Shown: positions 54,982 to 64,000 of the stretch, piece after piece
Layout: the number at the start of each line of letters is the position of its first letter
Position numbering within the stretch: the stretch's first letter is position 1
From: a virus
DNA length: 64,000 nt
Virus record (IMG/VR): IMGVR_UViG_3300027741_000024
Location: 32,001-96,000 of that record
Reading direction: 5' to 3' (one strand)
The notes under the pieces: model-generated
Seen by the model: the letters and a program-made list of their open reading frames with translations, nothing else
What the model was told of the DNA's origin: nothing
The model's database searches: none
Program-made: the position numbers and the translations under genes

Positions 54982-54998
54982 TCCTGTTAGTATAAATA
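54965..54998 (+). promoter_or_regulatory. Late promoter TATAAATA (54991-98) overlapped by a possible sigma70 promoter
   Basis: TTGACA-17-TAGTAT with TG, overlapping an exact TATAAATA. Confidence 0.7.
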
Positions 54999-55023: not shown

Positions 55024-56145
55024 ATGGCAAAATCTTATTCAGCTGCAGAATTAACAAAGATGCAAGAACTCGGTTCTGCGTGGGTTTTTCGTAGAGTATT
55101 GAATGATAATCAAATATACAACACTCCAGACGATATTGTAAAAGATAAAAAGTATAGTGAGTTGGTGAAAATTTATCCAGCAATAAATGCTGAATGGTTG
55201 AAAGCATTTCATGCCCAACAAAAAACTATGTTTAAAGAATTCGCATCATCTAAGTTTACAGAGTTCACAAGAGATGGTGGATTTATGGATTACATTACAG
55301 AACTTGTTCGCACAAAATTTAAAATTTCTAAAAAAGATTCTTGGGATCCCGCTGATATTTGGTGTGTTCAGAATGAACAAAAAGTTATTGCGGATATTAA
55401 AAAGATAATTGAAGATGGTAAAGCATCCAGTCTTTTAGAGTTAAATGCTCTTATGAGAACAATGTATAAAGAAAGAAGGCTTGTTGGTGTTTCTCTAAAA
55501 TTAATTTCTGGTAAAGAAGCAAAGTATGAAGAAGTTAATATAAATGAGGCTGATTTTCCTGATAAGAAAAATTATAATTTCAACATATCATCAATGAAGT
55601 GCCCTTTAAATTTAAAAAATGGAACACAATTTGCAACGCAAGATACTAGAATTATTGTGGAAGGTGATGGCGTAAAATATGATTTTCAAATTAAAGCAAA
55701 TAGCACATCTGGTTATAATAACTTAAAATTTGAACCAACTTCATCAGCAGGTACTAAAGCGAGATTAGGTAAAACACCACTTGACTTGTTAGCAAAACTA
55801 CTGAAAGATTATAAACTGCCATTTAAAAATAGTCATAAAGAATATCCAATGACTGGCGCAGAGTTCAATGATAAAACTTCTTTACAATATGCCAAGAATG
55901 TATACAATTCAATTGTTGCGGCAAAAGTTGATACTGGTGTGAAAAATGAAGAAGAGTTTATTGCAAATATGCAAAAAGTATTTACACTTGAACCACATAC
56001 AGCGAATTCTAAATTAATGCAGTTAAACTTTTTATACAATATTTGTGAAATGGAAAAAGAAGAAAGAGATAATCTATTAACTGATATGTGCTTTCTTGCT
56101 CAGAAAAAAGGCCGCCAATTTGGTCCATTTGGAAAATTATACTAA
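55024..56145 (+). CDS. Hypothetical protein, possible PD-(D/E)xK-fold nuclease
   Basis: KDSWDPADIW ... VGVSLK motif. Confidence 0.4.
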   Translation: MAKSYSAAELTKMQELGSAWVFRRVLNDNQIYNTPDDIVKDKKYSELVKIYPAINAEWLKAFHAQQKTMFKEFASSKFTEFTRDGGFMDYITELVRTKFKISKKDSWDPADIWCVQNEQKVIADIKKIIEDGKASSLLELNALMRTMYKERRLVGVSLKLISGKEAKYEEVNINEADFPDKKNYNFNISSMKCPLNLKNGTQFATQDTRIIVEGDGVKYDFQIKANSTSGYNNLKFEPTSSAGTKARLGKTPLDLLAKLLKDYKLPFKNSHKEYPMTGAEFNDKTSLQYAKNVYNSIVAAKVDTGVKNEEEFIANMQKVFTLEPHTANSKLMQLNFLYNICEMEKEERDNLLTDMCFLAQKKGRQFGPFGKLY

Positions 56146-56146
56146 A

Positions 56147-57376
56147 ATGAAATTCAGAGAATATTTAACCGAAGCAAAAAAAGAAGGTAAGAACGTTCAC
56201 CTAGAACATCTTGAAGATAATGTATTGAACAATGGTGTGTCTGGTGCAAGAGAAGCAATCAACTTTCTGCGTTCACTTCGCAATATGTTAGCAGGTCATT
56301 CCGATGTTAAAGTAAACGTGACAACAAAATGGGATGGTGCACCTGCAATATTTTGTGGCATTAATCCAGAAAACGGTAAGTTCTTTGTTGGTACAAAATC
56401 TGTGTTCAACAAGAATGCCAAACTAAACTATACTGACGCAGACATTGATGAGAATCATCCATCAGAAGGACTGAATGATAAACTGAAGATTGCACTTGCA
56501 TACTTACCAAAGTTAGGTATCAAGGGTATTCTGCAAGGTGATATGATGTTCACCAAAGATGATTTAAAACACGAAACGATTGATGGTGAAGAGTATTTAA
56601 TATTTCAACCGAATACAATTGTGTATGCAGTACCAGCAAATACTAAACTGGCTAAGATGATGCAAGCCGCACAACTTGGTGTGGTATTTCATACATCATA
56701 TGTTGGTAAAAATATTGAGAACATGAAAGCATCATTCAATATCGATATTGGTCATTTACAAACAACTAAAGATGTTTGGTTCCGTGATGCATCATTCACT
56801 GACGCATCTGGTTCTGCCACATTCACAGAAAAAGAAACTGCTGACCTCACATCAATTCTTTCACAAGCAGGAAGATTGTTCACTACAATACCTGCACTCA
56901 TACTTAATAAGATTGCATCATCCGAAACTTATCTGATGCAAATTAAAACGTACAACAATACCAAAGTGCGTGAGGGTCAAGAGATTCGTGATACTAGGGC
57001 ACATGTAACCGGTTTGATGAAGTGGGTAGAAGATAAACTGAACAAAGAAATCTCTGCTGCAAAGAAAGCAGATACGAAAGAGAAACGCATCAAAGAGAAA
57101 ACAGAAGTCATGCGATTCTATCGTACCAATGCTGCACAACTAAAAAACATATTTGATTTGATGAATATGATCATTGAGGCAAAACTTATGATCATTCGTA
57201 AGTTGGAAACTATTCGTTCAATCGGCACATTTGTTCGTACTGATGATGGATTCAGAATCACAGCACCAGAAGGATTTGTAGCAGTAGATAAACTAAAAGG
57301 TAATGCATTGAAATTAGTTGATCGTTTAGAGTTCAGTCATCAGAATTTTAGTGCTGCTAAAAATTGGAGTAAATGA
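56147..57376 (+). CDS. DUF6267-like protein with ligase/nucleotidyltransferase motifs and a capsid-targeting N-terminus
   Basis: MKFREYLTEA; KNVHLEHLED; TKWDGAPA; QGD; PEGFVA; KLVDR. Confidence 0.6.
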   Translation: MKFREYLTEAKKEGKNVHLEHLEDNVLNNGVSGAREAINFLRSLRNMLAGHSDVKVNVTTKWDGAPAIFCGINPENGKFFVGTKSVFNKNAKLNYTDADIDENHPSEGLNDKLKIALAYLPKLGIKGILQGDMMFTKDDLKHETIDGEEYLIFQPNTIVYAVPANTKLAKMMQAAQLGVVFHTSYVGKNIENMKASFNIDIGHLQTTKDVWFRDASFTDASGSATFTEKETADLTSILSQAGRLFTTIPALILNKIASSETYLMQIKTYNNTKVREGQEIRDTRAHVTGLMKWVEDKLNKEISAAKKADTKEKRIKEKTEVMRFYRTNAAQLKNIFDLMNMIIEAKLMIIRKLETIRSIGTFVRTDDGFRITAPEGFVAVDKLKGNALKLVDRLEFSHQNFSAAKNWSK

Positions 57377-57825: not shown

Positions 57826-58668
57826 ATGAAAGATTTGATCATTGGCTGCGCCACGAATTATAATTGGTCCAAATTAAAGTATTGGGTCAACTCTATCAAT
57901 CAATCAGGCTTTGAAGGTGATAAATGCCTGATTCTTATGAATTGTGATAAAGAAACCGTAGATAAGATTTCTGATGCGGGTTTTGCTATCATAGCATTCA
58001 ATCAAGATTCAAATGGTAATCTAACATACAACTCTAACATGATGGTGCATGTTGAGAGGTTCTTCCACATCTACAATGTTCTAAAAAATAATCTATATCG
58101 ATATGTAATTACCACTGATGTTAAAGATGTGATATTTCAAAAGAACCCATCTGAATGGTTAGAAAATAATTTATCAAAAGATGAAGATTTAGTATTTTCA
58201 TCTGAGAGTATGAAATATAAAGATGAGCCGTGGGGTAATCAAAATCTTATGGAAACATTTGGATCACAAATATATGAAGAGTTTAAGAATAATACTATCT
58301 TCAATGTAGGTGTTCTTGCTGGTCGTGGTTACGCCATGAAAGATTTGATGATGAATATCTTTACATCATGCGTTGGTCGTCCAATCAAAATTTGTGATCA
58401 GTCAACATTCAATTTCTTGATTTCACAACATCCATATCTAAAAACTTCCATGTATACCAAATCAGAAGATGGTTGGGCATGTCAGTTGGGCACAACTGCC
58501 GATCCAAGTAAGATAGATGAATTCCGTCCATTCTTACTTGAACCATCACCGAAATTAGATGGTGATAAGGTTGTAACTTCAGAAGGAATAGAGTATACTA
58601 TAGTACATCAATATGATCGTGTCCCAGAGTGGAAGAAAGTAATCGAGGAGAAATATAATGGTTTATGA
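57826..58668 (+). CDS. GT-A glycosyltransferase-like protein
   Basis: TTDVKDVIFQ.NP, FNVGV.AG, DQ..FN, HQYDR. Confidence 0.65.
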   Translation: MKDLIIGCATNYNWSKLKYWVNSINQSGFEGDKCLILMNCDKETVDKISDAGFAIIAFNQDSNGNLTYNSNMMVHVERFFHIYNVLKNNLYRYVITTDVKDVIFQKNPSEWLENNLSKDEDLVFSSESMKYKDEPWGNQNLMETFGSQIYEEFKNNTIFNVGVLAGRGYAMKDLMMNIFTSCVGRPIKICDQSTFNFLISQHPYLKTSMYTKSEDGWACQLGTTADPSKIDEFRPFLLEPSPKLDGDKVVTSEGIEYTIVHQYDRVPEWKKVIEEKYNGL

Positions 58669-59380
58669 AAAAATGTATATTAATAGTGATAATGAAACAT
58701 CACCTCAATCTAATCTAAAAGAAATATTCTGGAATTTGGACAAAGGTTGTACTAAATGGTCGGGTTACTTTGATGTGTATGAGAGACATCTGAGTAAATT
58801 CGTTGGTAAATCACCACGAATTTTGGAAATTGGTGTTCTTGGTGGTGGATCAATTGAGATGTGGTTAAAATACTTTGGTGAAGGCACAGAAGTTGTTGGT
58901 GTTGACATTAACGAAGAATGTAAAAATTATGTGTATGATGGTAAAGTAGAAATTGTAATGGGTGATCAAGGTGATCCACAATTTTGGGATCAATACCTAT
59001 CAGACAAAAAAGGATTTGATATCGTCATTGATGATGGTTCGCATGTGATGCAACATCAAATTACTACACTCAATAGTGTATTTCCACATGTAAGACCTGG
59101 TGGTGTTTATATTTGTGAAGATACACATACAAGTTACTGGCCACAACCATGGGGTGGTTCATTCCGTGGCGCTGGCACGTTCTTGGAACATGCCAAACGC
59201 ACGACAGACATTTTAAATCAACAACACTTTCAGGGTGAACCAATAATGCCTGAAGTTTTATCAAAATATTCAGGTCTATACTCTGTAGCATTCTATAATA
59301 GTATGGTTGTATATGAAAGAGAATCATTAAAAACATTTGGTATTGTAGATAACAAAGCAAATGTAGGACGTGATCTATGA
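58658..59380 (+). CDS. Class I SAM O-methyltransferase (MycE/TylE-like sugar methyltransferase)
   Basis: LEIGV.GGGS..MW..YF, GDQ, IVIDDGSH, YICEDTHTSYW. Confidence 0.8.
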   Translation: MVYEKMYINSDNETSPQSNLKEIFWNLDKGCTKWSGYFDVYERHLSKFVGKSPRILEIGVLGGGSIEMWLKYFGEGTEVVGVDINEECKNYVYDGKVEIVMGDQGDPQFWDQYLSDKKGFDIVIDDGSHVMQHQITTLNSVFPHVRPGGVYICEDTHTSYWPQPWGGSFRGAGTFLEHAKRTTDILNQQHFQGEPIMPEVLSKYSGLYSVAFYNSMVVYERESLKTFGIVDNKANVGRDL

Positions 59381-60093
59381 AGATAGCATTATGTTTATCT
59401 GGTCAAGCACGAAGTGTGGAAGCAGGATATGAATTTCATAAGAAAAATATTATAGAAGGTAATGATGTAACTGTATTCTTTCACACATGGACACAAGATG
59501 ATATGAGTTTCTATCGGAAGATTATAGACTTGTATAATCCTGAATTATCGGTTGCTGAAGATCCGCTTGATGAAGATTTGTCAAAATACACAAGAACTCC
59601 ACCACCATCACCAAACTGGAAAGTAAAGGATGGTAGAATGTCAACATTTGCTCAACTGTATGCTATTCAAGGTTGCAATCAGTTGAAATCTGAATATGAA
59701 CTTGAAAACAATATGACATTTGATTGGGTGATTCGGTCACGATTTGATTTTGCCATCAACGCTAAGATACCGTTTGATGAATTGGATAACAGCAAACTGT
59801 ACATTCCAAATTGCCGTATGGTACCAACCAAAGATTTTGGTAATGATCAGTTCGCATTCTCATCATCTAAGAATATGGATAACTATGCAGAATGTTATAA
59901 TCATATTGACAAATTCTATGATTCTGGTGTACAATATATGTGTGAAGATTTTATGAGTGCTAACTGGAAGAAATACGGTATGGTTGGTGAGAATCTGGTA
60001 TACTGTGATGTCAACCATCCATTTCCACCAGGTGAGTATAACGGAACACCACATTCTTTAATCAGGGAAGATTTTAAAAAATGGTTAACTTAG
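59377..60093 (+). CDS. Glycosyltransferase-like hypothetical protein
   Basis: IALCLSGQ.R, F.HTW, D.VIRSRFD, NDQFA. Confidence 0.5.
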   Translation: MKIALCLSGQARSVEAGYEFHKKNIIEGNDVTVFFHTWTQDDMSFYRKIIDLYNPELSVAEDPLDEDLSKYTRTPPPSPNWKVKDGRMSTFAQLYAIQGCNQLKSEYELENNMTFDWVIRSRFDFAINAKIPFDELDNSKLYIPNCRMVPTKDFGNDQFAFSSSKNMDNYAECYNHIDKFYDSGVQYMCEDFMSANWKKYGMVGENLVYCDVNHPFPPGEYNGTPHSLIREDFKKWLT

Positions 60094-60818
60094 TTATCTG
60101 TATGGCGGGTTATAATACCCGTTTTCATGATGTTGGTTTTGATATTCCAAAGTATCTGTTGCCTTGGAATAACACAACAATCATTCACGATATCTTAAAT
60201 AATTTTGGTGAAACGTACCAAACAATTCTTGTTGCAAACAAGCGTGATGTTTATTTCAAAGATCAATTACTAGAAACCATCAAACCATTTGGATTAGATG
60301 AGAAGAACATTCTATACATTGGTGATACTAAAGGTCAAGCACATACTGCTGCCATAGGTATTGATCAACTGTATGATGACAACATACCAACATTCATTCA
60401 TAATGCAGATACAATTGTTACAGGTCGATCTTTAAATCTGATTGCTGATTCGATGAATAATCTGTATGATGCTTATATTGATGTGTTTGTTGGCAACTCA
60501 CCAAAGTATTCATATGTTCGGGCATTTGAAGAAACTGTACTGGAAATTGTAGAGAAGAAACAAATCTCACCATATGCTTCATCAGGACTATATGGATTTT
60601 TGACGGGTAATATGTACATGAGTTTTTTTAATTCACTTTGGGCGAAACAATATGAAGAAAAGAGTGAACTGTATGTAGCAGATGTGATTCAAAGTATGAT
60701 TGCTGGAGGTAAACAAGTATTCATGAATGGTCTTGGAAATAACCAAGAAACGATTGTACTTGGCAGTCCACAAGAATATGGTATTGAGATAGCAAGACAA
60801 ACATTAGGTGCAAGATGA
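60081..60818 (+). CDS. Sugar/cyclitol-phosphate nucleotidyltransferase-like protein
   Basis: ICMAG..TRF.....PKYL, T.GQAHT, NAD, EK..IS..AS.GLYGF, ELYV. Confidence 0.75.
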   Translation: MVNLVICMAGYNTRFHDVGFDIPKYLLPWNNTTIIHDILNNFGETYQTILVANKRDVYFKDQLLETIKPFGLDEKNILYIGDTKGQAHTAAIGIDQLYDDNIPTFIHNADTIVTGRSLNLIADSMNNLYDAYIDVFVGNSPKYSYVRAFEETVLEIVEKKQISPYASSGLYGFLTGNMYMSFFNSLWAKQYEEKSELYVADVIQSMIAGGKQVFMNGLGNNQETIVLGSPQEYGIEIARQTLGAR

Positions 60819-61783
60819 TATCCGCAGTAAAGAAACTTAAAGGTGGTTCCCTTAGTTCCACATACTATATTAAATCTTGTGAACAAGAATGTATCAGTAA
60901 AGAAATTGTTCGTGATCAAAATCGTGAATATGGTTTCGTTCGTTGGTATTCACAACTAAAGAAATTGCAACGATATAATACATTGTATCCTAATCTATTT
61001 CCACAAGTTATTAATGTTGGTGTTGATCACAATAAAGCATTCTTCAAAATAGAATATATGAAAGGTTTTCGTGACATTAAAAATATTCTGACTAACGACA
61101 CTCTGACTGATGAACAAATCTTTCGTATGAGTCAAGCGGTGTGGAAAGGTCTGAATCAACTTCATTCAGTCACACATGATCCAATACCGGGAGCAGGTAA
61201 TTTATATTTTGAAGAAGAAGTACAACAAAAGATAACCGATGCACTTGTTGTGCCAGAGTTTGCTGAGTTTTATTCTTATGGAACATATGAGTATCATGAT
61301 ACAATTGTTCAAGGTATAGGTGCTTCAATAAACGACTTAGAAAATTTCTTTTCCGAGTTAAAGTTGGTACAAGAGGAAAACATTCATGGTAATCCTACAC
61401 TAGAAAACATTTTATATTCATTTGAGGAAGATCGTGTGGTATTTATTGATGTATATGAAGAAAGTATGATTGATACTAGGTTTTTGGACTATGCACAAGT
61501 TTTACAATGCTCACGCAGTAATTATGGTTACATAAATGATAATCAGGTAGATATAGATGGTGTTTCTGTAACTCATAGGTTGCAGATACCAAAGAATTTT
61601 GAAACCTTTAACTATCATTTTGAGTCAGGAATTACCGAAAAAAGAACTAAAGAGATTGTGAACATTTTTGAGGCAACTCAGTTCATTCGTATGCTTCCAT
61701 TCAAAGTTCTGGCAGGTGATATAGATAAAGCAAAGTTCTTTTATATTCAGGCGTGTTATTTGTTAAGTAAGGTATTTAAATGA
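60815..61783 (+). CDS. APH/choline-kinase-fold phosphotransferase
   Basis: LKGGSLS, K, IEY, IHGNPTLENIL, FID, D.AQ..Q. Confidence 0.65.
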   Translation: MISAVKKLKGGSLSSTYYIKSCEQECISKEIVRDQNREYGFVRWYSQLKKLQRYNTLYPNLFPQVINVGVDHNKAFFKIEYMKGFRDIKNILTNDTLTDEQIFRMSQAVWKGLNQLHSVTHDPIPGAGNLYFEEEVQQKITDALVVPEFAEFYSYGTYEYHDTIVQGIGASINDLENFFSELKLVQEENIHGNPTLENILYSFEEDRVVFIDVYEESMIDTRFLDYAQVLQCSRSNYGYINDNQVDIDGVSVTHRLQIPKNFETFNYHFESGITEKRTKEIVNIFEATQFIRMLPFKVLAGDIDKAKFFYIQACYLLSKVFK

Positions 61784-62919
61784 ATGATTTTATGATGGAT
61801 TACGACAAGTTCAAACGGACTTGGACAGTCAAAACAGAATTACCAGTAGAGTTCAAACTAACATACTCTGCTGATATTTTCAATCCTTTGAACCATGACT
61901 TGGTATCGTATAAGACTAACGATAGAGTGATGATTGTTATTGATCAGAATGTTCATAAGTTTTACACTGTAGAATTAATGAACTATTTCAATTCCCATAA
62001 TGTTAAATATTCTATGTTGGTTATTGATACTGACGAAGAAAGCAAGACATGGGAAGATGCAGACTATATTTTACAATTTTTTGAAGATGAAGGAGTGTTA
62101 CGCCGTGAACCGATTATCGCCATTGGTGGTGGTGTCTTGCTTGACATTGTTGGGTTTGCTTGCAGCATATATCGCCGTGGAATCCCTTACATCAAAGTCC
62201 CAACTACTTTACTGGCCATTGTTGATGCTTCCGTAGGGTCGAAGGTAGCAGTTAATCATTTTGAAAGACGCAATCGTCTTGGTGCATACTATCCACCAAT
62301 TGCCACATTGATCGACAAGAAGTTCATTAAGACACAAAGTGAACGTGAAATCGTTAATGGTATTGCTGAGATATTCAAGTTAGCAGTTATCAAATCACCA
62401 GAACTATTCACACTACTTGAAGAGAATGCTGAACTGTTGATTGAAGAGAAGTTTCAGCACGGCGCAGTACCAGTTCGTGTCATCAATCTTGCTATCACAG
62501 ATATGATTGCTGAACTTGGTCCTAATCTATGGGAAAGAAAACTAGATCGATGTGTAGACTTTGGTCACACATTCAGTCCTGTGATTGAGATGACAAATAT
62601 ACCAGAATTATTGCATGGGGAAGCAGTAGCACTTGATTGCTTGTATAGTTCATGTATTGCTTGTCTGCGTGGTTACATAGGTCAGAGTGTTCTCAACAGA
62701 ATATTCAATCTAGCAAAACGATTAAAACTAAAAACATTTCATGAAGGTTTCACAAACATGGAATTACTTCAGAAAAGTTTATCGGACGCAACTAAACATC
62801 GTAATGGTAATCAGTATGCACCGTTGCCAATATATGTGGGTAATTATAAAATTGTGAATGATATTACAAAATCGGAAATGGAATACGCTATCGCACTTTT
62901 TAGGACTTATCATGATTAA
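61780..62919 (+). CDS. Sedoheptulose-7-phosphate cyclase, 2-epi-5-epi-valiolone synthase (EEVS) type
   Basis: GGGVLLDIVG, YRRGIPY..VPTTL..VDASVG.K, MIAELGPNLWE..L.R.VDFGHTFSP, LLHGEAV, KHRNG. Confidence 0.88.
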   Translation: MNDFMMDYDKFKRTWTVKTELPVEFKLTYSADIFNPLNHDLVSYKTNDRVMIVIDQNVHKFYTVELMNYFNSHNVKYSMLVIDTDEESKTWEDADYILQFFEDEGVLRREPIIAIGGGVLLDIVGFACSIYRRGIPYIKVPTTLLAIVDASVGSKVAVNHFERRNRLGAYYPPIATLIDKKFIKTQSEREIVNGIAEIFKLAVIKSPELFTLLEENAELLIEEKFQHGAVPVRVINLAITDMIAELGPNLWERKLDRCVDFGHTFSPVIEMTNIPELLHGEAVALDCLYSSCIACLRGYIGQSVLNRIFNLAKRLKLKTFHEGFTNMELLQKSLSDATKHRNGNQYAPLPIYVGNYKIVNDITKSEMEYAIALFRTYHD

Positions 62920-63589
62920 GAAAAATGCTGTGGTGACAGGTTGCAGTTATGGTTTGGGTGCAGAGATTTGTCGTAAATTAATTGACGATGGTTATCATGT
63001 CTATGGTCTATCACGCAGTAAACCACCAGAAAGTTTCTTGAAATTTCCAGAAGATTTTACATGGGTTGAATGTGATATTTCAAGTTACGATGACGTTAGA
63101 TTGGCATTCAAATATATGAACCAATATACCGATATCCTAGTCAATAATGCTGGTGTATTTACTGGTGGAAAGTTTGCAGCACAAAATCATGAAGCAATTG
63201 ATAAAGTTATTGATGTTAATGTCAAAGGTGCGATGTATGTTACCAACGAAGCATTGAAGTGGATGCCATCAGGATCACGCATATTCTTTATTAATTCAGT
63301 TTCTGGTTTGTATGAGATAGAGTATGAAGCAATCTATGGTGCATCTAAACATGCACTCACTGCATTTGCGGGTGTGTTAGGTAAAGAATTGCAAAGTCGT
63401 GGCATCTATGTAACTAGTATTCATCCTGGCAGTATTGAGACTCCGATGCAACGAAATAATCCGAACAATGCACCAGATAAGTTTTTGAAACCAGAAGAGA
63501 TTGCTAATCTGATTTCATTTATTTGTAAGACCGAAAATGTAGAATATAAAACAATCAAACTATTTCCAAGGACAGAATGGCACCAATGA
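62912..63589 (+). CDS. Short-chain dehydrogenase/reductase
   Basis: TGCSYGLG, CDI, NNAG, S, YGASK, PG.I.T; ATG at 62912. Confidence 0.9.
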   Translation: MIKKNAVVTGCSYGLGAEICRKLIDDGYHVYGLSRSKPPESFLKFPEDFTWVECDISSYDDVRLAFKYMNQYTDILVNNAGVFTGGKFAAQNHEAIDKVIDVNVKGAMYVTNEALKWMPSGSRIFFINSVSGLYEIEYEAIYGASKHALTAFAGVLGKELQSRGIYVTSIHPGSIETPMQRNNPNNAPDKFLKPEEIANLISFICKTENVEYKTIKLFPRTEWHQ

Positions 63590-64000
63590 AAGATAAAACA
63601 TTATTCATCGTAACATCAGCTTTGAATGCTGATATGGGTGTGGTTAGTCGCACCGACAGGTTTGATCAGACTATGAAAGGTCTGATATCAATTCGTAAGT
63701 ATGTACCTGATGCCATTATTCTTTTAACAGATGGATCGCCTCATGAAATTGAAAAAGCAAAATTAAAAGCAATTTCACACTTTGCTAATTTTGCTGCCGA
63801 TTTTTCTGGCGATGAACAAATAACTGAGTTGGCTATTAATCATCGTAAAAGTGAAGCAGAAAATCTTTTGATGTTGAAAACTTTAATGCTTTTACAACAA
63901 GATGAGGATATGAAAGAAGTTATGAATAATGTTGAACGTATATTCAAGTTATCAGCACGAACTGATCTGACTGATGAATTTAACGTTGAAGAACATATGC
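63586..64000 (+). CDS. 3'-truncated glycosyltransferase-like hypothetical protein
   Basis: MKDKTLFIVTSA...R..QT...L.SIR...PDA.I.L.D.S...IFKLSAR; ATGA overlap with the SDR; open to the window end. Confidence 0.5.
   Translation, partial: MKDKTLFIVTSALNADMGVVSRTDRFDQTMKGLISIRKYVPDAIILLTDGSPHEIEKAKLKAISHFANFAADFSGDEQITELAINHRKSEAENLLMLKTLMLLQQDEDMKEVMNNVERIFKLSARTDLTDEFNVEEHM

Follow-up and report, generated by a model that had tools for sequence, protein, structure and literature searches.

Accessory island of a marine T4-like phage with a candidate cassette for an activated C7-cyclitol

Layout and carrier of the island

The DNA analysed here (the window) is a 64,000-nt stretch of a 146-kb, 85%-complete record from an uncultured marine T4-like (Kyanoviridae-like) phage. 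Genes for terminase, sheath, portal, a gp23-like capsid protein and a T4-type DNA polymerase lie within it, confirming the phage origin proposed in an earlier reading made from the sequence alone. Eight tightly packed + strand genes occupy positions 57826–64284. As that sequence-only reading had described, they look coupled, and neighbouring genes overlap by 4–13 nt. The last gene extends 284 nt beyond the window, and its end was taken from the parent record (L002:7577-8284). The genes are as follows:

57826..58668, + strand: g1, probable GT-A-type transferase (weak assignment), 280 aa; phrog_1579
58658..59380, + strand: g2, class I SAM-dependent methyltransferase, accessory, 240 aa; Pfam Methyltransf_24, phrog_21658
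59377..60093, + strand: g3, DUF7796, GT-A-fold transferase by its model, virus-typical family, 238 aa; Pfam, AF2 model and Foldseek
60081..60818, + strand: g4, short sugar-1-phosphate-type nucleotidyltransferase, core, 245 aa; profile versus PDB
60815..61783, + strand: g5, small-molecule kinase-like protein of APH/choline-kinase fold with an HGN catalytic loop, core, 322 aa; AF2, Foldseek
61780..62919, + strand: g6, predicted EEVS-type sedoheptulose-7-phosphate cyclase, core, 379 aa; ValA 4P53 match
62909..63589, + strand: g7, classical SDR, probable ketoreductase, core, ~226 aa; adh_short
63577..64000 (full end 64284), + strand: g8, unassigned, possibly a transferase, 235 aa in full; Atlas lead

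The longest ORF of g7 spans 62858–63589 (243 aa); based on the Rossmann motif and related loci, its real start is near 62909 (MIKKNAVVTG).

Two core genes flank the island; in phages Melnitz and HTVC008M the same pair is separated by 0.4–1.2 kb. The eight genes are best explained as an accessory island of a marine T4-like phage. The cyclase gene was found in 41 IMG/VR loci, with gene order kept wherever the locus is long enough, and dN/dS values of 0.04–0.20 show that all eight genes are under purifying selection. We found no phage homologue in GenBank phages or PHROGs, no paper on the cassette and no literature report of such chemistry in a virus, in agreement with the earlier reading, which knew of no such phage pathway.

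The four-gene core and its bacterial counterpart

The solved structure nearest to g6 is ValA (4P53, E 4.5e-86), ahead of the DDGS 5TPR (2e-65) and of DHQS structures, which scored 1e-41 or weaker; the aroB equivalog model gave 214 bits, below its cut-off of 305. The motifs MIAELGPNLWE, VDFGHTFSP and KHR, on which the sequence-only reading had relied, are all present in g6 (P0001). W251, D260 and H340 fit the EEVS pattern, Asp260 and His340 being what we take to be the two sites that distinguish EEVS from DDGS, and Salmonella AroB has Arg and Asn at the positions of Trp251 and Asp260. Residues that bind NAD and putative metal ligands are kept, and dN/dS is 0.04–0.08. These comparisons support the earlier prediction that g6 is an EEVS-type cyclase and not a DHQS or DDGS.

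For g5, a confident AF2 model (pLDDT 90.7) bears out the kinase-fold label given earlier and confirms an APH/choline-kinase fold at the level of the model. Foldseek returned NahK, MTR kinase, FN3K and APH at ~1e-7, and VIA gave Z 18 to 3dxq and 3w0s, a search that places a choline/ethanolamine-kinase family protein among the neighbours. The anomeric 1-kinases NahK, MTR kinase and maltokinase, enzymes that feed nucleotidyltransferases or related activation steps, are also structural neighbours, which speaks for the route proposed below. The catalytic loop of g5 reads HGN instead of HGD, so that the general-base Asp is absent, as in pseudokinases. The motif HGNxTLEN is invariant save for one phage copy reading LGN. 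The route proposed below supposes that g5 is catalytically active despite this loop. A metagenomic kinase-cyclase fusion (P0123, locus L124), in which a nucleotidyltransferase lies directly upstream of the fused gene, shares 32% identity (E 3e-47) with g5 over its N-terminal half. In further EEVS relatives the fusion partner is a ROK kinase or an NTP_transferase domain.

The nucleotidyltransferase and SDR labels also held. The g4 profile matched the NDP-sugar pyrophosphorylase 4EVW best in the PDB (4e-24), then RmlA, GlmU and HddC, and this search returned no relatives of LicC, TarI or IspD type; the NCBIfam models rmlA_long and Arch_glmU matched at ~1e-10, under cut-off. In g7 we found the Pfam domain adh_short (2.6e-40) and the motifs TGxxxGxG, NNAG and YxxxK. 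An aldo/keto reductase stands in the place of the SDR in two bacterial loci (L045 and L056), which argues for plain ketoreduction.

Genes of the g4–g7 types are clustered, with little or no change of order, in bacteria belonging to eight phyla. The cyclase co-occurs strictly with the kinase-fold protein, the reductase and the nucleotidyltransferase, both in the 41 phage loci and in this bacterial module, a co-occurrence that the sequence-only reading had proposed to check; the kinase-like protein and nucleotidyltransferase are its invariant partners in module loci. Of 13 module loci outside phages, 10 have a g4 homologue adjoining the cyclase, with one additional weak match. In the cyclase tree, with AroB as outgroup of the whole clade and ValA itself not placed, exactly the module loci and the phage clade group together (32 rows, SH-aLRT 96). 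The phage clade (SH-aLRT 95) is nested in the module clade, and its sister is a gammaproteobacterial MAG (L044) at 85. The Nostoc DDGS forms a long branch within the EEVS-like radiation, so the product is not fixed by phylogeny alone; the EEVS product is the most likely prediction.

In a Balneolaceae locus (L049) the module belongs to an operon read from one strand, whose other genes encode an ABC exporter, a DegT aminotransferase, methyltransferases, a HAD-NTP-transferase and a homologue of DUF7796; in L044 and L045 GT2 and GT61 genes adjoin it. With its ABC exporter and several transferases, the bacterial setting resembles a surface-glycan locus.

The outer genes

The three glycosyltransferases named in the sequence-only reading fared differently. 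The one that stood is g3, which contains DUF7796 (Pfam, 6.8e-9); its AF2 model (pLDDT 77) gave Foldseek matches to GT6 GTA/GTB at 2e-7 and confirms a predicted GT-A fold, making it the sole outer gene with a fold so established. In BFVD it matched cyanophage and giant-virus proteins, one of them named glycosyltransferase. For g1 a GT-A-type assignment is weakly suggested by phrog_1579 glycosyltransferase (E 8e-6), by PLOD-GT and Nucleotid_trans matches in two of the 18 relatives scanned and by the Atlas lead PF03407; no match was found among PDB sequences. It carries a conserved motif, TTDVKDV, and is 60–91% identical across related phage loci (dN/dS 0.08–0.15). The claim was not borne out for g8, which had no match in Pfam, PHROG or the PDB and an Atlas lead of WavE and DUF7796 only. 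It is present in all related loci reaching far enough (identity 37–96%, dN/dS 0.07–0.14). No g1 or g8 homologues were found in the bacterial module loci and the g3 family is widespread in viruses without the module, and thus the transferases may serve ordinary sugars.

The methyltransferase label of g2 was confirmed (Methyltransf_24, 2.7e-7; phrog_21658, 6e-24; weak RMNT_CmcI match). It is the one dispensable gene of the eight: it was undetected in roughly one related locus in three (L003, L004, L022 and L029–L038, some of whose contigs end near the site) and has moved elsewhere in L026–L028, and the bacterial module lacks it. A methylated product as the rule, as envisaged earlier, is not upheld.

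Proposed route and competing readings

We consider it probable that the cassette makes an NDP-C7-cyclitol for transfer to an acceptor, the core g4–g7 supplying this unusual activated donor and g1, g3, g8 and the optional g2 using or decorating it. Host sedoheptulose 7-phosphate would be cyclised by g6 to a C7 ketocyclitol, most likely 2-epi-5-epi-valiolone, and the ring ketone reduced to an alcohol by g7. The APH-fold g5 would then phosphorylate the cyclitol and g4 couple the cyclitol phosphate to an NMP, yielding the NDP-cyclitol, from which GT-A-type proteins would hand cyclitol or cyclitol phosphate to the acceptor, most plausibly a glycan of the infected cell or of the virion. The order of steps, exact cyclitol, phosphorylated hydroxyl, nucleotide and acceptor are all inferred in this scheme, and no feature of the island points to the acceptors named in the sequence-only reading (virion proteins, the host surface or DNA). 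Besides the placement of the Nostoc DDGS and the chance that the transferases serve ordinary sugars, the HGN loop of g5 counts against the scheme. So does the lack of an epimerase or dehydratase in the cassette, which would leave the cyclitol saturated; known pseudoglycosyltransferases take GDP-valienol, an allylic donor, and a saturated NDP-carbasugar would serve ordinary glycosyl transfer poorly (PMC9200736 and general background).

The closest described chemistry is the GDP-valienol branch of acarbose and validamycin synthesis, with AcbC/ValA (EEVS), the ROK kinases AcbM/ValC, AcbO, AcbL, the SDR AcbN, the 1-kinase AcbU, AcbJ, the nucleotidyltransferase AcbR/ValB and the pseudoglycosyltransferase AcbS/VldE (PMC9200736). 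The phage cassette would share its sedoheptulose 7-phosphate start, EEVS-type cyclase, SDR-class ketoreductase, cyclitol kinase step and a nucleotidyltransferase giving an NDP-cyclitol. It does not look like a copy of that pathway, however, and the sequence-only interpretation of the island is, taken together, partly supported. The kinase is APH-fold with HGN and not ROK; epimerase, dehydratase and phosphatase are missing; the nucleotidyltransferase is short and RmlA/4EVW-like, whereas AcbR/ValB are GlgC-like; GT-A-type proteins replace the GT20 pseudoglycosyltransferase; the cyclase sits in its own subclade; and the cassette is carried by a lytic-type phage instead of an actinomycete. GDP-heptose LPS/capsule pathways (GmhA, HddA kinase, GmhB, HddC) share the precursor and the logic of modification, 1-phosphate formation, nucleotidylation and transfer by a glycosyltransferase; HddC is a g4 relative, and the bacterial module setting is likewise surface-glycan-like. 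Their kinase is GHMP, unlike g5, the phage route needs no phosphatase, and a cyclase in place of the isomerase implies a carbocyclic product. Glycan/LPS islands of marine T4-like cyanophages and chlorovirus capsid-glycan enzymes resemble the island in combining soluble GT-A-type proteins with an O-methyltransferase-like gene in a variable region, as in PBCV-1 A064R with its GT-A and methyltransferase domains, and DUF7796 is common to cyanophages and giant viruses. We know of no cyanophage glycan island or chlorovirus glycan system that makes its own carbocyclic donor.

A variant differing in transfer chemistry, modelled on CDP-glycerol, CDP-ribitol, CDP-choline and CDP-inositol, is that g5 phosphorylates, for example, the primary C7-OH and g4 forms an NDP-cyclitol from which cyclitol phosphate passes to a glycan as a phosphodiester. 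This would sidestep the difficulty that a saturated carbasugar poses as glycosyl donor, and an APH-fold kinase paired with a short NTP_transferase activating a phosphorylated alcohol, here a C7 cyclitol, is the LicA/LicC arrangement. The choline/ethanolamine-kinase neighbour of g5 points the same way, as do the ROK kinases fused to EEVS relatives, since the C7-cyclitol kinases AcbM, which phosphorylates the C7-OH, and ValC are ROK proteins too (PMC9200736). We think the variant unlikely, if worth keeping in view, since g4 is nearer to sugar-1-phosphate enzymes, none of the cassette's proteins was recognised as a phosphotransferase of LicD, TagF or Stealth type, and the g3 model is GT-A with GT6-like neighbours.

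About equally doubtful is a soluble product that leaves the infected cell, either a cyclitol glycoside or a pseudo-oligosaccharide, serving for example as glycosidase inhibitor, signal or osmolyte, with GT-A proteins glycosylating the cyclitol or the NDP-cyclitol condensing with a sugar. Every characterised EEVS pathway yields soluble metabolites, such as acarbose, validamycin, kirkamide, streptol glucoside and gadusol (PMC9200736, PMC12904256), and in divergent phage clades a 4,6-dehydratase and a DegT aminotransferase are added; enzymes of these two types build the amino-deoxyhexose that is joined to valienol in acarbose (PMC9200736). The phage cassette also contains no membrane protein or flippase. 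Against this reading, it encodes neither an exporter nor a self-resistance kinase nor a GT20 pseudoglycosyltransferase, and the bacterial module has its surface-glycan-like setting. The common interpretation of GT-rich islands in marine T4-like phages, moreover, is that they serve surface or virion glycans.

A gadusol-like UV screen or antioxidant, raised as an alternative in the sequence-only reading, is very improbable. An EEVS-type cyclase with the gadusol enzyme's residues at the EEVS/DDGS-separating sites, a SAM methyltransferase and an SDR do share one operon in a phage of sunlit ocean water. However, the methyltransferase is the dispensable gene, the obligatory g4 and g5 are not needed for gadusol synthesis, and the island lacks a fused methyltransferase-oxidoreductase like vertebrate MT-Ox (PMC4426668).

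We give as little weight to glycosylation of a modified phage DNA base with cyclitol or sugar: the cassette transferases are soluble and T4-type phages glycosylate hydroxymethyl-cytosine with their own transferases, but the 85%-complete record yielded no thymidylate-synthase/dCMP-hydroxymethylase family gene, and the module also occurs on bacterial chromosomes, adjoining glycan genes. Hardest to credit is that g6 is simply a 3-dehydroquinate synthase (aroB) which the phage carries as an auxiliary gene to help make aromatic amino acids: it has Pfam DHQ_synthase domains and JGI annotates many homologues as '3-dehydroquinate synthase', but the sub-cut-off aroB score, the far better match to ValA than to DHQS structures, the Trp251/Asp260 positions and the outgroup placement of AroB all argue otherwise.

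The insertion site and spread of the island

The parent IMG/VR virus record is 146,310 bp long with an estimated completeness of 85%. The window encodes a large terminase, tail sheath, portal, scaffold, gp23-type major head protein, helicase, SbcC-like nuclease and T4-type DNA polymerase. The nearest relatives of the capsid region (65–70% DNA identity) are Prochlorococcus and Synechococcus myoviruses, Pelagibacter phage Mosig and Methylophilales phage Melnitz. The 85%-complete record yielded no psbA, transaldolase or thymidylate-synthase-family genes, and the window no tRNA genes. Based on the structural and replication genes, the capsid-region relatives and the failure to find psbA, we take this uncultured virus to be a marine T4-like myovirus of the Kyanoviridae type. 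Its host is probably a heterotroph.

The island is bordered by two genes that are conserved in island-less Kyanoviridae (Melnitz; gp130 of Pelagibacter phage HTVC008M), where the distance between them is only 0.4–1.2 kb. Thus, the 6.5-kb cassette is an accessory insertion between core genes, and the downstream cytidylyltransferase is outside the cassette.

Features of the island and its flanks (L002 is a stretch of the parent record that runs on past the window)
Window 56096-57376: DUF6267 gene (phrog_455), flanking core gene upstream of the island
Window 57826-64284, + strand: island of eight genes in the order g1 to g8
Window 60815-61783, + strand: g5, kinase-like protein of 322 aa, no Pfam match, fold from a predicted model
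L002:8322-10436 (window-equivalent 64322-66436): downstream flank, 704-aa fusion of a cytidylyltransferase-like domain and a zeta-toxin/AAA_33 kinase

Further downstream are genes for three late-type proteins, one with DUF6321 at its end (L002:10433-14872, window-equivalent 66433-70872), a Laminin_G_3 structural-like protein (L002:16248-16997) and an endolysin (phrog_181; L002:17935-18549).

Neighbouring ORFs of the island, all on the + strand, overlap by 4–13 nt. The last gene, g8, crosses the window end at 64000, and its end was taken from the parent record. The longest ORF of g7 begins at 62858; the Rossmann motif and related loci place the start near 62909. Scans for sigma-70 promoters and terminators gave signals at or below chance. 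The T4 late-promoter-like octamer TATAAATA occurs at four + strand sites (window 16934, 19633, 31607 and 54991) where 6.5 are expected, which leaves its reading as a late promoter without statistical support. Genes start immediately downstream of at least three of them (16934, 19633 and 54991). A transcript into the island could start from the site at 54991, one of a set whose count is not above chance.

The gene order noticed in the sequence-only reading recurs in IMG/VR. A scan there yielded 41 loci with cyclases 65–96% identical to that of the island, and in those long enough both the order and the flanks are unchanged. More than 100 further homologues with 83–96% identity lie on metagenomic contigs, the longest of 189 kb. 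All eight genes are under purifying selection (dN/dS 0.04–0.20), the cyclase being the most constrained, and the methyltransferase gene g2 is missing or relocated in about a third of the 41 loci. The terminal gene g8 is a mosaic, sharing 96% identity with its counterpart in locus L003 and only 63% with that in L006, with adjacent genes 82–89% identical to both. This pattern suggests that g8 has been swapped between related phages.

A blastn search of GenBank phages with the whole cassette gave no match, and a protein search with the cyclase returned only aroB in bacterial-contaminated records, at no more than 33% identity. In PHROGs no family was found for the cyclase, the kinase-like protein or g8. 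Some copies of the cassette genes have been named automatically by public pipelines. Full-text literature searches (EEVS, valiolone or cyclitol with phage, virus or AMG) did not find a viral EEVS or cyclitol pathway, and phages and viruses go unmentioned in a 2026 cyclitol review. This is in agreement with the earlier remark, made without a search, that no phage pathway of this kind is known to have been described.

The cyclase

The product of g6 has the two-domain architecture of the DHQS-like proteins (Pfam DHQ_synthase 1.5e-35, DHQS_C 1.8e-19) with the GGGV motif of the Gly-rich NAD+ site, and all cyclase motifs cited in the sequence-only reading were found in it. Compared with solved structures of EEVS, DDGS and DHQS, three related types of sugar-phosphate cyclase, it matched the validamycin EEVS ValA (4P53) best at 4.5e-86, followed by the Anabaena DDGS (5TPR) at 2e-65 and DHQS at 1e-41 or weaker. 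In 17 diverse relatives neither the NAD-binding residues nor the putative metal ligands (E197, H263 and H279) vary; the three residues are presumed to be metal ligands from what is known of the DHQS family.

As Kean 2014 is cited in PMC4426668, EEVS and DDGS are told apart by two active-site positions. Our check of g6 covered these two sites and the metal ligands, out of a 14-site fingerprint. We took the two sites to be the Asp in VDFGH and the His in KHR. The corresponding residues of g6, D260 and H340, align with those of ValA, where the Anabaena DDGS (5TPR) and the DDGS of a Nostoc mys cluster have Ala and Thr. Together with ValA being the best PDB match, this bears out the earlier assignment of an EEVS-like signature rather than that of DHQS or DDGS.

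Two other identities for g6 were rejected. A DDGS would carry the A/T fingerprint (IAxGHTWSP) and not D/H, and the neighbouring genes include no ATP-grasp or D-Ala-ligase-like genes, unlike those of the Nostoc locus L127. Grouping with DHQS, which according to the sequence-only reading would count against an EEVS, was not seen: g6 scores 214 bits with the 3-dehydroquinate synthase (AroB) model TIGR01357, which has a cut-off of 305, Salmonella AroB carries Arg in place of W251 and Asn in place of D260, and the position in the tree also excludes aroB.

In a maximum likelihood tree the phage and module cyclases form a clade of their own, neighbouring the actinobacterial ROK-linked cyclases. The phages and all loci with an APH-fold kinase fall into one group (32 rows, SH-aLRT 96), in which the phages form a single clade (SH-aLRT 95) whose sister is the cyclase of a gammaproteobacterial MAG (85). 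As this subclade has no known assayed member, the tree contains no assayed enzyme and its DDGS branch is unstable, we infer the exact product of g6 from its active-site residues.

EEVS-like domains are also seen in large metagenomic fusion proteins (P0121, P0127, P0132 and P0146), namely a 2653-aa ROK-EEVS-Zn-ADH, ROK-EEVS proteins of ~730 aa, an AMP-binding-EEVS and an EEVS-NTP_transferase-hexapeptide protein.

Partner enzymes and the core module in bacteria

The predicted model of g5 (pLDDT 90.7) has a bilobal small-molecule kinase fold resembling APH and choline kinase. With VIA, 243–267 residues of the model aligned at 3.0–3.4 Å (Z 17–18) to 3dxq and 3w0s, which are a choline/ethanolamine-kinase family protein and APH(4)-Ia, with maltokinase, MTR kinase, NahK and fructosamine-3-kinase close behind. 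Foldseek gave ~1e-7 to NahK, MTR kinase, FN3K and APH. The catalytic loop reads HGNPTLEN (residues 191–198; H191, N193, N198), so that Asn replaces the general-base Asp of HGDxxxxN. This holds for every phage and bacterial copy examined, one phage copy having LGN for HGN. The Gly-rich loop, Lys29, Asn198 and Asp212, which are ATP/Mg-binding residues, are conserved. The JAK2 pseudokinase loop has the same HGN, which explains the weak PDB profile matches of g5. The lack of the catalytic Asp calls for caution regarding the phosphorylation step proposed below.

The nucleotidyltransferase g4 is a short NTP_transferase with an N-terminal MAGYNTRF motif of the G-x-G-x-R type and Lys24. Its profile matched 4EVW (4e-24) and then RmlA (1e-5), GlmU and the heptose enzyme HddC in the PDB, and it scores under every NCBIfam equivalog cut-off. 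The product of g7 belongs to the classical SDRs, its catalytic motif being intact, and that of g2 to the class I SAM methyltransferases.

Three further genes had been labeled as GT-A (g1) or glycosyltransferase-like (g3 and g8) from the sequence, and the labels fared differently. That of g3 (DUF7796) is backed by its model (pLDDT 77, pTM 0.81), which has a GT-A fold with GT6 enzymes as top matches (2e-7, TM about 0.5). Viral relatives, some of them named glycosyltransferase, match at TM values of up to 0.7, the family is spread through cyanophages and giant viruses, and four acidic residues (D116, D124, D153 and D157) are invariant. For g1 the signals are weak, namely phrog_1579 at 8e-6 and scattered Pfam glycosyltransferase signals. 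For g8 no glycosyltransferase family or fold match was found in Pfam, PHROG and PDB profile searches, and a large protein search returned only close "hypothetical" phage relatives. PDB profile searches with g1, g3 and g8 gave no match (for g1 and g8 even at E 10), and no relation of g3 to g8 or of g1 to g3 was seen by profile-profile comparison.

The nearest cellular cyclases are found in a gammaproteobacterial MAG (62% identity), a Magnetovibrionaceae MAG (54%) and a Prochlorococcus single-cell contig (44%). Also among the nearest are those of Balneolaceae, Myxococcota, Fibrobacterota, Desulfobulbaceae and Holophagaceae genomes. The co-occurrence of the cyclase with its partners, on which the sequence-only reading depended, extends to these genomes: in nearly all of the loci homologues of g4 and g5 lie next to the cyclase, in most together with one of g7, and the order is unchanged or almost so. 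In the Holophagaceae locus g5 is present, and g4 gives only a weak match. The position of the SDR is taken by an aldo/keto reductase (AKR) in the Magnetovibrionaceae and Prochlorococcus loci; this non-orthologous replacement speaks for a simple ketoreduction. One metagenomic relative has a g5-like domain fused to its cyclase and the nucleotidyltransferase immediately upstream; in other EEVS relatives the fusion partner is a ROK kinase, an NTP_transferase or a Zn-ADH.

In all, the four-enzyme route (g4–g7) is carried by bacteria from eight phyla in surface-glycan-like loci. Its distribution is patchy: the module was found in 2 of 61 relatives of the sister gammaproteobacterial MAG. The surroundings include an ABC exporter, a DegT aminotransferase, methyltransferases, a HAD-NTP-transferase and a DUF7796 homologue in Balneolaceae, and GT2 and GT61 genes in proteobacteria. 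Judged by gene content, these settings resemble surface-glycan loci.

The Prochlorococcus contig (L056, from Prochlorococcus sp. AG-424-E20; 10.3 kb, GC 0.29) has genes for the nucleotidyltransferase, the kinase-like protein, the cyclase and the AKR, followed by a TPR protein. This DNA is either a Prochlorococcus genomic island or phage DNA within the sorted cell. The gammaproteobacterial MAG is 2.2 Mb in size, and its locus has 34% GC. A 2204-aa ORF lies just upstream of the module there (L044:12-6626). A Pfam scan of its C-terminal 874 residues found no match, and the ORF could encode a large surface protein.

A proposed route to an activated C7-cyclitol

In the route we consider most likely, sedoheptulose 7-phosphate (SH7P) would be cyclised to a ketocyclitol, which would be reduced, phosphorylated and nucleotidylated to give an NDP-cyclitol. 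This would serve as the donor for the GT-A-type proteins. A further, tentative reading, possible rather than probable, is that phages and scattered bacteria make glycoconjugates with a carbocyclic C7 pseudo-sugar, using an NDP-cyclitol supplied by an EEVS-type cyclase, a ketoreductase, an APH-fold kinase lacking the Asp and a short nucleotidyltransferase.

Two variants of the proposed route are serious. As no epimerase or dehydratase is present, the cyclitol would stay saturated, and ordinary glycosyl transfer from it would be chemically hard. In one variant the cyclitol phosphate is transferred, as in CDP-alcohol systems. In the other variant the product is a soluble pseudo-oligosaccharide. 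The gadusol-like UV screen that the sequence-only reading had offered as an alternative is unlikely: the kinase-like protein and the nucleotidyltransferase are indispensable, but the methyltransferase is not, since many related loci lack it or have it elsewhere and the bacterial modules do without it; nor does the island contain an MT-Ox fusion. DNA modification is likewise unlikely, as the 85%-complete record gave no gene of the hydroxymethylase family.

The logic of the proposed NDP-cyclitol route mirrors that of the GDP-valienol branch of acarbose synthesis, which uses an EEVS, kinases, a reductase, a 1-kinase, a phosphatase, a nucleotidyltransferase and a pseudoglycosyltransferase (PMC9200736). 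It also shares both logic and the SH7P precursor with GDP-heptose synthesis. In both cases the enzyme families of the island are different and its route is much shorter. A GDP-valienol pathway of the acarbose/validamycin type was rejected, as none of the eight island products matched the ROK, VOC, Zn-ADH, HAD or GT20 families in Pfam and NCBIfam. Only the cyclase, the SDR class and the nucleotidyltransferase, which in the island is of another subtype than GlgC, are common to both.

The predicted EEVS-type entry reaction is encoded in an island that is abundant and conserved among uncultured ocean phages. There it is tied to a different and much shorter activation route, which is shared with surface-glycan-like loci of bacteria from eight phyla. 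EEVS-derived C7-cyclitols form the core of drugs and agrochemicals (acarbose, validamycin) as well as sunscreens (gadusol), and to our knowledge they are free cell metabolites in every case. If our tentative reading is true, they would be structural building blocks of glycans besides secondary metabolites, and the phage would place a glycosidase-proof linkage on the virion or the infected cell surface, for example blocking superinfection or resisting degradation. Should the product be an NDP-carbasugar, virus-encoded auxiliary metabolism would gain a new class and glycans a new kind of building block, and glycoengineering would have a source of activated pseudo-sugars in four genes.

Divergent phage clades add genes for an NDP-sugar 4,6-dehydratase, a DegT aminotransferase, a second extended SDR and a 2OG-Fe(II) oxygenase.

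Added genes in loci of divergent phage clades
L033: 2995-4023, 8852-10180, 10358-11173 and 11888-12667
L036: 6495-7622
L026: 12466-13278

Enzymes of the types added in these clades produce 4-amino-4,6-dideoxyhexoses, the kind of sugar that acarbose pairs with valienol (PMC9200736).
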